Shown one piece after another: positions 12,587 to 16,287 of a stretch of DNA of 25,248 bases. The notes under the pieces are model-generated. The model was given only the letters and a program-made list of their open reading frames with translations, searched no databases and was not told where the DNA came from. A program made the position numbers and the translations under genes. The stretch is from a virus. Lineage: Duplodnaviria; Heunggongvirae; Uroviricota; Caudoviricetes. Numbering within the stretch: the first letter of the stretch is position 1; each line of letters starts with the position of its first letter. The DNA lies in IMG/VR virus record IMGVR_UViG_2700989400_000006, positions 1-25,248 of that record. The stretch is one strand, 5' to 3'.

Positions 12587-12956
12587 TATAAAATCAATCA
12601 GAAAGGCGATCCGTAAGAACAACAGCAAGACAATAAATTGCCATTACAGCCGCAATAGCTAGCGCACATTTGAGAACCAGCACGACAACCTCCTGTATTG
12701 GACGTACACCAATTCTGATAAATATGAGGCTGTCTCATCATTGATTCAATATAACTATTGGGTATAGTTTCTGTGATTTTGTTCTGTAGAAATGGAACAC
12801 AACAACCAGTCACCACCAGCACTTCTTTAAATACGCCAAGTCCGACGCAAGCTAACCTTCTAGTCCGCTTTGAGCGAAGAGCGGACATTGCTAACAGCAT
12901 CCTGTGTGAATCATTACGATCAAATCGATGACTAGATAAGTACAAACCGGAAAAGG

Positions 12957-12977
12957 GGCCTACTGACGAAGTAGGCC
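12957..12977 (-). terminator. Hairpin terminator candidate at the 3' end of the three-gene cassette
   Basis: GGCCTACT / AGTAGGCC form a perfect 8-bp stem with a 5-nt loop. On the minus strand CCTTTTCC follows, a short U-run. The hairpin begins 18 nt after the stop of gene 3. Confidence 0.55.
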
Positions 12978-12994
12978 TGAGTTCCTTATATATT

Positions 12995-13651
12995 TCACAA
13001 AATTCTGAGAGTTTCTAAGATGGATAAAAGTGTTGGAAGCTGACTCTCTCTCACACGGAATCTACCCGTCCTAGATAATTCCGTTTCAATTCCGTTAACG
13101 AAGAAATGTACGGAATCAAAAACGGCCGAACTATTCATGTATTTATTCTGATAAATTTCTTGGAGATTCTTTGAGCTTACTATTTTTGTCTTTGCTAAAG
13201 TAAAAGGATCAACAGAGATATTAGATAGAGACATGGATTTTATCTTGATGTCAAAGCCCTCAGAAAGACCATTTACAATTTTTCTCAGATCAAATTCTAC
13301 TGGTCTCAAGCCACTATCTTCACCAAATAGTTTTTGCACCATAGTATAAGGCACTTTCATACTTAATGGAGGATTAGTGGCATATAGTATGATTTTTTTC
13401 CCTTGTCTGACGCCAAAGTCCACATTTAAGTAAGTTGCTATTTCAACCTCTGAACGCTCGCCATTAGCATATTCTAAGCTTTGCTTGCTAATGCTTCTCA
13501 TGGTAAATCTTAGTTTAAGCACTTCAGAGTTATTAATGATTTGAAAACCATATCCTTTATCTTCATCATAGAGGTTGTCATTTACTTTATGTAATAACTC
13601 ACTTTTAGTTATATCCTTTTCTGCTTTATAAATTTTTACCTTTATCATCAT
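12995..13651 (-). CDS. Cassette gene 3: hypothetical protein (218 aa), no recognisable family
   Basis: ATG 13651 (MMIKVKIYKAEKD...) is preceded by GGAGG with a 5-nt spacer and overlaps the stop of gene 2 (ATGA). The region is about 30 % G+C by hand count. I saw no TM segment and no catalytic motif. Confidence 0.85.
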   Translation of the reverse strand: MMIKVKIYKAEKDITKSELLHKVNDNLYDEDKGYGFQIINNSEVLKLRFTMRSISKQSLEYANGERSEVEIATYLNVDFGVRQGKKIILYATNPPLSMKVPYTMVQKLFGEDSGLRPVEFDLRKIVNGLSEGFDIKIKSMSLSNISVDPFTLAKTKIVSSKNLQEIYQNKYMNSSAVFDSVHFFVNGIETELSRTGRFRVRESQLPTLLSILETLRIL

Positions 13652-14895
13652 CCAGCCTCCTGATTCAAAGTCTCGCAAGACATAGCTTTCGTTACTGGGT
13701 ATCGCTTGGTATGCTCTTCGATAATAAAGTCATTAATCAAAAATATTTTATCTTCTAATTGTTTCATGACTTGATCAAAGTCTGCGTCACTGAGTTTTTC
13801 TCTCTCTGCGGATGCAGAGTTGCTTTCTTTGTATAACGCTCTGAATTTTATATTTTTCCCAAGATATTTATCATCGAAACTAAGTTCAAAAGTTATAGTA
13901 TGATTCTTAACTACTGAGGAAAATGACTTCCATCGAATTAAGCTTCGATAAAACCCATCACTGCACAGTTCCTTAATTTGAGGTGCGTTCACTAATGATA
14001 GGCCATCATACGCGGCATTGTTAATGTTAAAAGTTAGGTTTTCATCATCGTCAGATGCCATTTCCTGATTATTAATGTCATCATCATTTTCGTTATCTGT
14101 AGAAGGTGAAATCTTGTTTAATAACTCTTGTGTTTCTTCGTTATTATTTCCTTCGAGATTATCTCCATTAATATCCAGAGATGTTTTTATTCTGCTTACT
14201 CTAACCTTTTCAAGACCAGCATATTCAAGTCCTGTTTTTTTATAATTTCCATCAAAATCATAAAGATGAACAGCAAAAATATTCCTAAGATCTGTATCAA
14301 CGATACTTGATAAATCTATTTCGTTGACAACTATGTTGTTACAAACTGTTGATGAATATGTATCAATTATTTGCTTGAGAATTTCTGAAATGCGTGGCGT
14401 ATAGTTATATCTTACTGAAACATATCCTTTTTTTACTATAAAAACTATACTCCCACTGTACAATTTTTTCTGCTGAAACTTACCCCTTCTAAAATCAAAC
14501 TCAGTATAATCAATAGATATATGATAGGTTTGCAAGCCTGAGTAATGATCAATTTTCTCATGCCCTAGCAACTTGGGTCTATTTTCTTTCACTTTGTTTA
14601 CAACGTCATAGAGTTTCTCTATATCAAATTCTTCATATATACGTTTTACTGAGAAGACGTCTTGGCTGGGTTTGGTTGCCAGTTTATCTTGTACTTCTCT
14701 GATGTGATTATATGAAAATGGCAGGTCTGATAATTTTTCTATCAATACCTCTTTTGATAAGTTAGATGGGAAAATTATCCCTCTATTGAAGGCGATTTTC
14801 CTTAATGTAACATCTGTGATTTTTGCACTGTTAGAGTGGAGGGCGGTATAAATGTCACTTTCGTTTGAAAACAACGTAGCTTGATATTTATTCAT
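13648..14895 (-). CDS. Cassette gene 2: hypothetical protein (415 aa), two domains joined by an acidic Asn/Asp-rich linker
   Basis: This is a track ORF. ATG 14895 has AAGGAG 7 nt upstream and lies 10 nt after the gene 1 stop. The linker covers residues about 241-286 (DINGDNLEGNNNEETQELLNKISPSTDNENDDDINNQEMASDDDENL). I recognise no family, Walker motif or TM segment. Confidence 0.85.
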   Translation of the reverse strand: MNKYQATLFSNESDIYTALHSNSAKITDVTLRKIAFNRGIIFPSNLSKEVLIEKLSDLPFSYNHIREVQDKLATKPSQDVFSVKRIYEEFDIEKLYDVVNKVKENRPKLLGHEKIDHYSGLQTYHISIDYTEFDFRRGKFQQKKLYSGSIVFIVKKGYVSVRYNYTPRISEILKQIIDTYSSTVCNNIVVNEIDLSSIVDTDLRNIFAVHLYDFDGNYKKTGLEYAGLEKVRVSRIKTSLDINGDNLEGNNNEETQELLNKISPSTDNENDDDINNQEMASDDDENLTFNINNAAYDGLSLVNAPQIKELCSDGFYRSLIRWKSFSSVVKNHTITFELSFDDKYLGKNIKFRALYKESNSASAEREKLSDADFDQVMKQLEDKIFLINDFIIEEHTKRYPVTKAMSCETLNQEAG

Positions 14896-14905
14896 GTCAT
14901 ACTCC

Positions 14906-15997
14906 TTATGAAAAGTGACATTTTCTATTCACCTGCTTGCTGGCAACCTGGTACTCAAATATAGATAGCTTTTGATTAACAAAAGGAATGGATACTATTT
15001 TTTCCTTTAACGTTTCTATATGAGATTGAGTGAAAGAATATATTCCTATGTAATCATTAATGGCGGATTGCAAATGAATGCTTGAGTGTGATGAGAACGG
15101 AGTTATAACAAATATTTTGTTAAATTGATTGAGTAATTGATAGTTAAATATATACTCTAAAAGAAATATAAAGTGGTTACTGGAATCAATCTCTTCCTTC
15201 CAGAATATATTCAATATTTTATTTCTTATTCTATCGCCACCATCATTTCTAATATATTCGTGTTCATATGAGTAAAAAATCATCCCAGATGTTATCATTT
15301 CAATTGTGGCTGGAAGGATTTTCCCTTTCGTTGCTATTTTATTATGTTTGTCAGGGTAAAAATATGTACAGTTCTCTATCTCAGGAATTTTTTGCCATAA
15401 CATATTTGTTTCTTGTGTTACTTTGTCAGTAATTCCTCTTCTAGTCTCGATGTGTTCTGTAACATCTAGTAAAAATCTGATCATAGTTGGGTCAAAAACG
15501 GCAATCACAGAGTTCTCTGGAAAATCATAACTTGCTGTGGCTGCTCCATTTAATTTCTCAATTAAATCAGAGTCATATTTATTGTCATGATTATATATAA
15601 AAAGTAGGCCGTTAACTTGATATTTCTCATTTGTGCTGTCAACAAATAGACGCCGCCACTCAGGACTTCTTGGCGCGCAAGCTACCTGTTGTGATAAACT
15701 TCGTACAGTGTTCAATATTGATTTTGTACCGTCAAGCGTGCTGGCACAATAAGATTTTAAATCTGTTTGTATATACTGAGTTATATCTGAATAAGGATCT
15801 TTATATTTGAAGACTACATCCGTAGGATGAGTTTTTTTTGGGTTTTCAGATAAAAGTTGTTTAGCGTTTAGATGAGATCTCAAACAACAGTCCCAACTTA
15901 TATCCGTTGTATTTTGGGTTTTCCAGCCTAACTCATCAAAAATTCTACTGGAAATGATACCTGCAATCTCATCAATATTCTTAGTTTCGCCGCCCAC
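14906..15997 (-). CDS. Cassette gene 1: hypothetical protein (363 aa) with an N-terminal PD-(D/E)xK nuclease-like motif
   Basis: GTG 15997 has GGAGG 4 nt upstream. The arrangement is E22 (IFDELGW), then D60 (HPTDVVFKY), then D79-L-K81 (YIQTDLKSY). This fits the helix, strand(D), strand((D/E)xK) core of restriction-endonuclease-fold enzymes. I recognise nothing in the C-terminal 190 aa or so. Confidence 0.85.
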   Translation of the reverse strand: MGGETKNIDEIAGIISSRIFDELGWKTQNTTDISWDCCLRSHLNAKQLLSENPKKTHPTDVVFKYKDPYSDITQYIQTDLKSYCASTLDGTKSILNTVRSLSQQVACAPRSPEWRRLFVDSTNEKYQVNGLLFIYNHDNKYDSDLIEKLNGAATASYDFPENSVIAVFDPTMIRFLLDVTEHIETRRGITDKVTQETNMLWQKIPEIENCTYFYPDKHNKIATKGKILPATIEMITSGMIFYSYEHEYIRNDGGDRIRNKILNIFWKEEIDSSNHFIFLLEYIFNYQLLNQFNKIFVITPFSSHSSIHLQSAINDYIGIYSFTQSHIETLKEKIVSIPFVNQKLSIFEYQVASKQVNRKCHFS

Positions 15998-16069
15998 GCT
16001 TCCTCCATAGTTCGTTGTTTTATCTAGTGAAGATCTGATTCATGGTTTTCCAAGCCCATGCGCAAAACA

Positions 16070-16098
16070 ATTAATCAAGTAAGAATAATCTTAATCAA
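16070..16098 (-). promoter_or_regulatory. Sigma70-like promoter candidate for the three-gene cassette
   Basis: The minus strand reads TTGATT (16093..16098), a 17-nt spacer, then ATTAAT (16070..16075). It sits in the AT-rich leader about 70 nt upstream of the gene 1 start. Confidence 0.4.
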
Positions 16099-16287
16099 TT
16101 TAATCTTTTTTATTTGAATCATCAAGAGCCCCATTACTGATAGGCATCAGTTGGTGGTATCTCTGCTCAAGCTTCAGTAAAATCTGGTTTGCTACTTCCG
16201 CTCCTGGCACAAAGCGGACAACCGCGCTAGCTCTACCCTGTGCCACAAAATGTCAATTTGCATCTGAACTAATGCACTTTAATCTCG

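Follow-up and report, generated by a model that had tools for sequence, protein, structure and literature searches.

Inverted hairpin sites around a presumed anti-phage cassette in a lambdoid prophage: probable core-type recombination sites of a cassette-exchange system

The DNA analyzed here comprises the 25,248 nucleotides of the IMG/VR virus record IMGVR_UViG_2700989400_000006 (Caudoviricetes; positions 1 to 25,248, hereafter the window), part of a lambdoid prophage in which two copies of a short hairpin motif, TCCGCT-N10-AGCGGA, stand on either side of an AT-rich block of genes. These two hairpins, so-called L and R sites, are most probably core-type recombination sites of a cassette-exchange system, with a small tyrosine recombinase as the likely catalyst, a reading to which we assign a probability of about 0.7. 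In the proposed arrangement, one L and one R site in mutually inverted orientation would delimit a three-gene anti-phage cassette, lodged in the slot between the hok toxin gene and the DUF977 gene of the prophage.

The window contains exactly two copies of the motif, at 12864-12885 and 16197-16218, and none of 100 dinucleotide-preserving shuffles contains any; a relaxed scan of the window allowing two arm mismatches and any loop gave no further copy. The initial annotation had placed the copies, with their flanking bases, at 12863-12887 and 16196-16220, in DNA of normal GC content outside the AT-rich block; sequence and coordinates are correct, and the GC profile agrees, both copies lying just beyond a block (approximately 13000-16000) with a GC content of 0.29-0.38. 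The full sites are as follows:

12863-12886, no strand: L site, G TCCGCT TT GAGCGA AG AGCGGA C, with arms at 12864-12869 and 12880-12885 and the centre GAGCGA at 12872-12877.
16196-16219, no strand: R site, t TCCGCT CC TGGCAC AA AGCGGA C, with arms at 16197-16202 and 16213-16218 and the centre TGGCAC at 16205-16210.

Both sites parse as a 9-6-9 structure in which the inverted arms G-TCCGCT-nn and nn-AGCGGA-C flank a 6-bp centre, and inverted arms around a central region are also the layout of lox, FRT, and dif. The two site types share the inverted arms and differ in the centres, GAGCGA in L and TGGCAC in R; seen from the cargo side, the R centre reads GTGCCA and differs from the L centre at two of six positions. 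The 6-bp arms are palindromic and thus hold no orientation information. The left loop TTGAGCGAAG matches the reverse-complemented right loop (TTGTGCCAGG) at 7/10 positions, against 3/10 in the direct register, and because the loops, not the palindromic arms, carry orientation, the full sites are inverted repeats; the direct orientation originally proposed is wrong. A CTA had also been noted close to each copy: on the left it lies within the conserved backbone flank, whereas the right one is without counterpart in relatives. Folded as single-stranded DNA, both hairpins are modest: the left site reaches -7.4 kcal/mol (z-score -2.4) and the right site -5.2 kcal/mol (z-score -0.4). The centre and right arm of the L site are near-duplicated (GAGCGAA-GAGCGGA), which would make the site prone to slippage; a tandem (GAGCGAA)n expansion is seen within an internal L site of another locus (L049, approximately 4103-4165, window-oriented).

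The sites coincide with the boundaries of the cargo. The comparison set comprises 80 IMG/VR loci and four annotated phages (84 in all), chosen by their DUF977 protein only, so that the sample is unbiased toward the hairpin. In the phages Tritos and Evi, the cargo between DUF977 and hok is not that of the window, and their homology to the latter stops at 12889 and restarts at 16197 (Tritos) or 16194 (Evi), which are the outer hairpin edges. In most loci, homology with the window is lost within 12877-12890 and regained within 16188-16210; of the 84 loci, 73 have their right break at the R site, and 47 of 72 break on the left within the L site, a figure that rises to 52 of 72 when cassettes sharing a 28-bp extension with the window are included. 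The earlier suggestion that the hairpins border an exchangeable module is therefore borne out, relatives with 23 cargo types breaking homology at the sites. Both anchors are present in 74 loci (73 relatives and the window), and 62 of these contain L/R sites, in the architectures LR (45 loci), LRR (5), LLRLR (1), LRLRR (1), R (9), and L (1).

The 23 distinct cassette types bracketed by sites span 1-4 kb, with a GC content of 0.30-0.52, and at least 10 of them include recognized defence families, comprising AbiH, Tmn/YobI ATPase, SMEK/Aga-like, PDC-S15/FRG, a CBASS-type SMODS cyclase, PD-T7-1, RES with a Lit-like peptidase, Mrr-like, HEPN/RES-NTD, and Hp1-3; other types encode transporters or metabolic enzymes. 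Cassettes occur in both orientations, the sites adjoin genes of either orientation, and the cassettes seem to have their own promoters and terminators. Insertion sequences are found inside some of them, an IS5-like DDE transposase gene in locus L046 (cassette C17) and ISApl1 in NZ_CP070930, giving rise to longer variants.

Comparison of the individual instances discloses that each site is a hybrid of a backbone half and a cargo half. On the left, G-TCCGCT-TT-GAGCGA is constant with the hok backbone, whereas the following two bases and AGCGGA-C vary with the cargo; on the right, TGGCAC-AA-AGCGGA-C is constant with the DUF977 backbone, whereas G-TCCGCT and two bases vary with the cargo. Profiles of 49 distinct L and 52 distinct R sites show arms conserved to 76-100%, with the inner two arm positions variable. 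When matches are found by the arms alone (at most two mismatches), 122 of 132 carry one of the two loop types, and such loop conservation is more readily expected of protein recognition or strand exchange than of a hairpin whose loop can vary freely. Loci with several cassettes display, as internal junction, either a single R site or an R-spacer-L doublet with a spacer of 15-28 bp; the viral contig L091, for example, presents three doublets and a terminal R site between cassettes of approximately 0.85-1.2 kb. GIY-YIG nuclease-like genes adjoin site arrays in two unrelated loci (L091, 1739-2566; L226, 9641-10219) and may represent coincidence, cargo, or an accessory factor.

The same site-bounded cassettes are found in unrelated backbones. 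The window cassette is rare (11 of 5,426 complete E. coli genomes), and one of its copies (locus L095) resides in an unrelated island beside an integrase, IS3, and the conjugation genes trbL/trbJ, where homology to the window spans 12863-16219, exactly from site to site. The PD-T7-1 cassette is 96-99% identical in a lambdoid array, in the FI/G slot of the P2-like Yersinia phage vB_YpM_46, and in a Morganella phage, L/R-bounded in each. Both cassettes keep their orientation relative to L and R across backbones. In the P2-like phage L086 the sites occupy the Z/fun slot, with the tail-sheath gene FI on one side and the gene for tail-fibre assembly on the other, and the reference phage P2 itself displays an R-type site right after gene G and an L-type site, its backbone arm lost, right before the FI promoter, with fun(Z) between them. 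Neither the window cargo nor the AbiH cassette found a match among sequenced phages.

The junctions of cassette C1 (3,651 bp, comprising DUF2254 and a BCCT transporter) are arm-swapped. This cassette is at least 99.86% identical in 11 loci, in contexts that include six left and two right neighbours, one context being a plasmid. Its left junction is always ctx-TCCGCT-NN-TGGCAC-AA-AGCAGA-C1 and its right junction C1-TCTGCT-CT-TGGCAC-AA-AGCGGA-ctx, where ctx stands for the context. As far as sequence can tell, this is the exact product expected if a TCTGCT-CT-TGGCAC-AA-AGCAGA circle crossed a resident R site at the centre. Taken together, the arm-swapped junctions of C1 in 11 loci and the 9-6-9 profile are, by sequence, those of a tyrosine-recombinase core site.

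In several gammaproteobacterial orders, the gene of a candidate enzyme is physically linked to the sites. The loci L015 and L095 share a 714-bp module (96.8% identical) that comprises half an R site, a terminator-like hairpin, a 200-aa open reading frame (ORF), a palindromic promoter region, and half an L site; situated between the two half-sites, the gene takes the place of the doublet spacer. The 200-aa protein matches the Pfam family PF00589 (1.8e-18, 67.3 bits, cut-off 27.1) and falls below every cut-off of the NCBIfam Xer, invertase, and integron-integrase models, the integron-integrase models scoring 16.2 and 15.5 bits (cut-offs 265 and 435) and a FimB/FimE-type model 25 bits (cut-off 222). 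Among solved structures it finds a marginal XerD match only, with H-x-x-R, LLGH, and Y aligned with XerD. An alignment that takes in a 53%-identical alphaproteobacterial homologue shows no variation at the catalytic residues R51, K79, H148, R151, H174, and Y183; this homologue is encoded in a metagenome-assembled genome (locus L135, 1220-2117) with hairpin doublets of the same arm family on both sides, an arrangement related to that of the Gammaproteobacteria. The family comprises at least approximately 8,000 clusters of proteins of approximately 200 aa, 78-97% identical across Enterobacterales, Alteromonadales, and other groups, and its members carry generic names only. An R-type half-site follows the stop codon in Proteus, marine Gammaproteobacteria, and Idiomarina, and a clear L-type half-site is seen in E. 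coli and Proteus; the genes beside the recombinase are often defence-like or related to metal resistance.

The recombinase module is present in 756-892 of the 5,426 E. coli genomes, including CFT073 (protein WP_001305361.1) and ATCC 25922, with 45 matching places on plasmids. Site-bounded arrays contain it in the CFT073 island, together with an iron-uptake cassette, and on the plasmid p31B22057_A_NDM, two cassettes away from C1. The CFT073 array (L217, NC_004431 258975-283679) comprises a TonB-dependent receptor and ABC iron-uptake cassette, L/R-bounded, and virulence-associated cargo may thus use the same platform. A further contig (L087) displays five sites between 3538 and 8760, with ars genes and umuD-like genes also on the contig; two adjacent tyrosine-recombinase-like ORFs of a different kind (707 and 335 aa) lie between the sites and may correspond to a transposon inserted into the array. 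The initial annotation had left the choice between recombination or insertion scars and binding sites for a phage protein. The arm-swapped junctions and the linked tyrosine recombinase gene make recombination sites the best-supported choice; the candidate recombinase is not encoded by this phage and is found in other mobile elements, and would have to act in trans.

On this basis, cassettes could move by two routes: (i) replacement, by L x L plus R x R exchange with another element bearing the same site pair, and (ii) integration, in which a circle would enter at a single site and generate tandem arrays joined by R-spacer-L doublets. The proposed catalyst belongs to the 200-aa tyrosine recombinase family, whose gene is flanked in other mobile elements by a half R site and a half L site; no recombinase is encoded in the window, the slot of which would thus depend on an enzyme acting in trans, in the manner of attC arrays that lack an integrase. 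From the sequences we infer that the recombinase acts on the L and R sites, that strands are exchanged at the 6-bp centre, and that circular intermediates exist. The sites are inverted and their centres differ, at two of six positions, and for these reasons L and R are predicted not to recombine with each other; such mutual incompatibility would leave the cargo neither inverted nor lost.

Several points weigh against this reading. What ties the recombinase to the sites is their linkage, and the window itself lacks a recombinase gene. The slot is used without any sites in 12 of the 74 loci, a site-less class with breakpoints at 12563-12571 and 16305-16306. The conservation of the centre in the profiles is partly built in, the sites having been sorted by centre. 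Compensated arm changes are restricted to three cassette types (C1, C5, and C16), and many cassettes display single uncompensated arm changes. Neither a C1 circle nor a tandem joint was found in metagenome or viral contigs, and no unoccupied site of the form first predicted (TCCGCTTTGAGCGA-N0-30-GGCACAAAGCGGAC, the joined backbone halves) was found in IMG/VR. Finally, the 14-15-bp identical block of each site, formed by the centre and the backbone arm, could in principle sustain exchange by short homology, with no dedicated enzyme.

Two readings were abandoned in the course of this analysis. The first model, insertion into a single hairpin loop, gave way to the L/R site-pair and circle models; no empty site was found in IMG/VR. 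Selection for pairing between the cargo-side arms was likewise rejected, as three compensated types face many uncompensated ones; the cargo-side arms of some cassettes complement each other and not their hairpin partner, for which arm swapping from donor sites with variant stems is the better explanation. As regards the site-less class (loci L003, L004, L064, L065, L067, L070, L071, L078, L083, and L084), the genes after DUF977 are ordinary early genes whose ribosome-binding site overlaps the final DUF977 codons, and the hok-side flank of 290 bp is absent.

In the main rival reading, the sites could be passive linkers with no dedicated enzyme, the cargo being exchanged by general or phage-encoded recombination or annealing (RecA, Red, or RecET) over 14-22 bp of identity, much as in the linker idea of the lambdoid modular theory or in the cassettes of T4-type phages bounded by promoter-early stem-loops (PeSL). 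The lack of a recombinase in the window, the short identical block of each site, and the missing circle joints all suit such a mechanism, as does a RecE-type system encoded in the same prophage of relatives, for example, L096. It would nevertheless leave unexplained why the same 22-24-bp sequences, with two fixed centres, are kept in otherwise unrelated backbones and why half-sites enclose a tyrosine recombinase gene in several orders of Gammaproteobacteria and, in a related form, in an alphaproteobacterium; moreover, the six independent, base-precise, arm-swapped C1 junctions show more order than microhomology events would lead one to expect. We therefore consider passive linkage improbable.

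According to another, very unlikely possibility, the hairpins would function as RNA or transcription elements of the flanking genes (terminators, insulators, or mRNA stabilizers), and cargo boundaries would adjoin them only because replacements that destroy them are selected against. Both sites are indeed intergenic and foldable, at -5 to -9 kcal/mol as DNA and with z-scores down to -3.4 in relatives, and the R site lies 68 nt past the DUF977 stop codon. Against this, no T/U tract follows on either strand, no terminator is called at either site, no promoter-like match overlaps them, and the cassette appears to have a terminator hairpin of its own. In addition, the stems of hybrid sites are often imperfect (5/6 or worse) whereas the loops are conserved, the L site of P2 has lost its backbone arm, the neighbouring genes are of both orientations, and the sites form doublets in arrays. 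An intrinsic terminator or promoter was discarded after consensus scans of both sites, on both strands, proved negative and no T run was seen after either hairpin. Readings of the loop as a sigma-54 promoter (TGGCAC-N5-TTGC) or as nut/boxB, LexA, or CRP elements were set aside by eye, the second half of the consensus being missing.

Selfish palindromic doublets of the REP/REPIN type, spread by a REP-associated HUH (Y1) transposase and simply accumulating between genes, are slightly less credible still. The resemblance lies in the R-spacer-L doublet, two inverted palindromic units approximately 15-28 bp apart, and in similar doublets that recur several times per 8-kb locus in soil Alphaproteobacteria, where the copy number looks high. 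In E. coli, however, doublets occur in approximately 19% of genomes, with a median of 1 and a maximum of 4 per genome, a copy number that rules out a high-copy REP element there; the linked gene belongs to PF00589 and not to the HUH transposases, the junctions show conservative reciprocal exchange, and no HUH gene was seen beside any site. Lastly, a chance pair of unrelated hairpins sharing a 6-bp stem and loop length, which the initial annotation had allowed for and which a short stem, noticed post hoc, might yield in a few per cent of 25-kb stretches by a rough estimate, is excluded for practical purposes by the shuffles and by overwhelming comparative evidence.

The alphaproteobacterial doublets came from a scan of species-representative genomes with the R pattern, which revealed in many soil Alphaproteobacteria a comparable doublet of two hairpins, repeated several times within an 8-kb locus and found on several contigs of the same genome. 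The carriers include Pseudolabrys, Xanthobacteraceae, and Methyloceanibacter (loci L097-L216, e.g., L133, L141, and L174), and the doublet takes the form atgTCCGCT-nn-TGGCAC-nn-AGCGGAcat, approximately 19 nt, gTCCGCT-loop-AGCGGAcat, with TGACCC and CGGGGG as other centres. By their sequence pattern, these doublets look like a REPIN-style expansion driven by a phage-integrase-family enzyme and not by a RAYT.

The window represents the early-right region of a lambdoid prophage, read along the minus strand, with the gene order cI-like repressor (plus strand), cro, cII-like gene, replication initiator, DUF977, the AT-rich block, hok/mok with sok, YdfU, RusA, and a Q-like gene. The slot and its surroundings comprise the following features:

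12227-12439, minus strand: hok/mok toxin ORF (Pfam HOK_GEF, 3e-23), left neighbour of the slot.
12377-12551: sok antisense RNA region (Rfam sok, 111.7 bits, 1.5e-25; gathering score 59).
12572-12862: left backbone flank, from hok/sok to the L site, conserved; it travels with the L site and is missing from site-less relatives.
12886-12913: 28-bp extension cattgctaacagcatcctgtgtgaatca, directly inside the L site, also found in L015 (cassette C14), L035, L042, and L092.
12887-16195, minus strand: AT-rich cargo cassette of three genes (PADLOC Hp1/Hp2/Hp3 models).
12957-12977, minus strand: cassette hairpin GGCCTACT-tcgtc-AGTAGGCC followed by CCTTTTCC, 18 nt past the last cargo gene, as read from the sequence.
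12995-13678, minus strand: Hp3-like gene (PADLOC Hp3, 4.2e-11).
13648-14895, minus strand: Hp2-like gene (PADLOC Hp2, 9.6e-11).
14906-15997, minus strand: Hp1-like gene (PADLOC Hp1, 7.6e-41).
16220-16287: right backbone flank, from the R site to the DUF977 stop codon, conserved; it contains CTGTGCCA.
16288-16710, minus strand: DUF977 ('LygF') gene (Pfam DUF977, 4.9e-29), last gene of the replication block and right neighbour of the slot.

The left neighbour is a hok/sok type I toxin-antitoxin system, its Hok/Gef ORF being overlapped by the sok RNA; an Rfam E-value scan of 11000-17500 returned sok only and no other known RNA family. The cargo genes are adjacent and follow the order Hp1-Hp2-Hp3 along the minus strand (PADLOC models PDLC03004-03006), and a Pfam scan of the three found no domain. 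A three-gene system with no predicted domain, originating from a P2 hotspot, protects against phage P1 (Rousset et al. 2022, PMC9122126), and to judge from the models matched, the window cargo is presumably a system of the same kind. The hairpin at 12957-12977 is probably the cassette's own terminator, although a consensus terminator scan, which needs at least five T, did not call it; if it is, the L site is not needed for termination.

Two sequence elements adjoin the sites. The extension cattgctaacagcatcctgtgtgaatca is common to several cassettes with otherwise unrelated cargo and could serve as an accessory binding site or represent a common 3' module. On the other side, CTGTGCCA (16238-16245), 19 nt past the R site, is the reverse complement of the R-type centre plus 2 nt, and the same arrangement is found in the backbone of phage P2 (NC_001895, approximately 15305-15315); it may be a vestigial second half-site, in which case the backbone side of R would be a degenerate R-spacer-L doublet. 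Other AT-rich stretches of the window (GC content of 0.33-0.40), at 2400-3400, 8200-9200, and 11800-12200, are not bracketed by L/R-like sites.

A wider generalization can be advanced with some hesitation, namely that the sites belong to a widespread, uncharacterized platform, comprising a 200-aa recombinase reduced to the catalytic domain and two heterospecific 9-6-9 sites and acting in trans, by which cassettes hop between lambdoid and P2-like phages, plasmids, and conjugative and pathogenicity islands of Gammaproteobacteria, with relatives in Alphaproteobacteria. If true, this would constitute a natural form of recombinase-mediated cassette exchange, carrying defence, iron-uptake, transport, and other functions, and would supply the mechanism behind at least some phage 'defence hotspots'. 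How defence and accessory genes move rapidly between unrelated mobile elements is an open question, the hotspot papers showing turnover while the mechanism is speculative; a 24-bp site pair with a candidate enzyme makes the question testable and predicts exchangeable slots. As landmarks, the L and R sites delimit cassettes precisely, which is useful for the discovery of defence systems, and a single framework links the P2 Z/fun locus, lambdoid prophages, the CFT073 pathogenicity island, and a resistance plasmid. Should the idea of heterospecific sites hold, the 200-aa recombinase and its 24-bp sites would also offer a compact natural tool for cassette exchange.

A literature search, not covering the older P2 literature, found no description under the motif strings, the protein accessions, or the concept, the short motif strings matching primers only. 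A 2004 title by Nilsson et al. reportedly ties site-specific recombination to the inserts at the P2 Z/fun locus. Papers that cite the older P2 work say only that Z/fun holds horizontally acquired genes, and the repeats of this locus may have been described earlier.

Among known systems, the defence hotspots of P2-like phages and P4 satellites are similarly variable slots of temperate phages with diverse anti-phage systems, and a trio of the window type was first found there; nevertheless, the window slot is lambdoid, between hok and DUF977, and the related slot of P2 is Z/fun, not the cos-proximal hotspot. For those hotspots, cos ends and homologous recombination have been speculated to drive exchange (Rousset et al. 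2022, PMC9122126), and neither that work nor a second paper (NAR 2026, PMC13586616) mentions hairpins, palindromes, or flanking sites. The FimB/FimE recombinases are likewise approximately 200 aa long, consist of a catalytic domain with hardly any N-terminal DNA-binding domain, and act on short inverted repeats; yet the similarity is below threshold, and they invert one promoter segment, whereas the present cassettes show no inversion. The PeSL cassettes of T4-type phages and the boundary or linker sequences of lambdoid phages resemble the L and R sites in placing short conserved stem-loop motifs beside variable genes, at the mosaic boundaries of hyperplastic phage regions. Those motifs are promoter or terminator elements that probably recombine by homology within one phage group, whereas the L and R sites are without promoter or terminator features, are common to unrelated phages, plasmids, and islands, and are linked to a recombinase.

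Functionally, the closest known systems are integrons; architecturally, they are the pdif modules of Acinetobacter and cassette exchange with heterospecific lox or FRT sites. As in integrons, (i) a tyrosine recombinase lies beside an array of mobile cassettes (the CFT073 island, p31B22057_A_NDM, L015, and L095), (ii) the junction sites are hybrids of their parents and the cassettes appear to enter as circles, (iii) arrays without a recombinase are presumably served in trans, comparable to attC clusters without an integrase, and (iv) the cargo includes anti-phage systems. By integrase type and attC structure, however, the system is not an integron. The recombinase has 200 aa, against more than 300 aa for IntI, and scores far below the integron-integrase cut-offs; in place of long, folded attC sites with R''/L''/L'/R' boxes there are compact palindromes of 9-6-9 layout, each with one of two fixed centres, and no GTTRRRY core was found in the sites and doublets, read on either strand. 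Moreover, most cassettes lie between two inverted, different sites, compared to one attC each in integrons, occur in both orientations with seemingly their own promoters and terminators, and have their platform inside phages, plasmids, and islands.

The pdif sites of Acinetobacter, which are XerC/XerD sites of a dif-like 11-6-11 layout, flank resistance and toxin-antitoxin modules in inverse orientation. Common to both systems are discrete modules with short, inversely oriented core sites, distributed over several replicons, with an orientation that alternates along arrays; the sites described here differ by a sequence with no evident resemblance to E. coli dif, by two centre types, and by a dedicated small recombinase in place of the host XerCD. 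Cassette exchange with heterospecific lox or FRT sites, for its part, is an engineered laboratory technique, whereas L/R incompatibility is here predicted from two differences in six centre positions; the two nevertheless share a common design of inverted sites with the same arms and a different spacer, in which like would recombine with like and the cassette would be replaced with neither inversion nor deletion.

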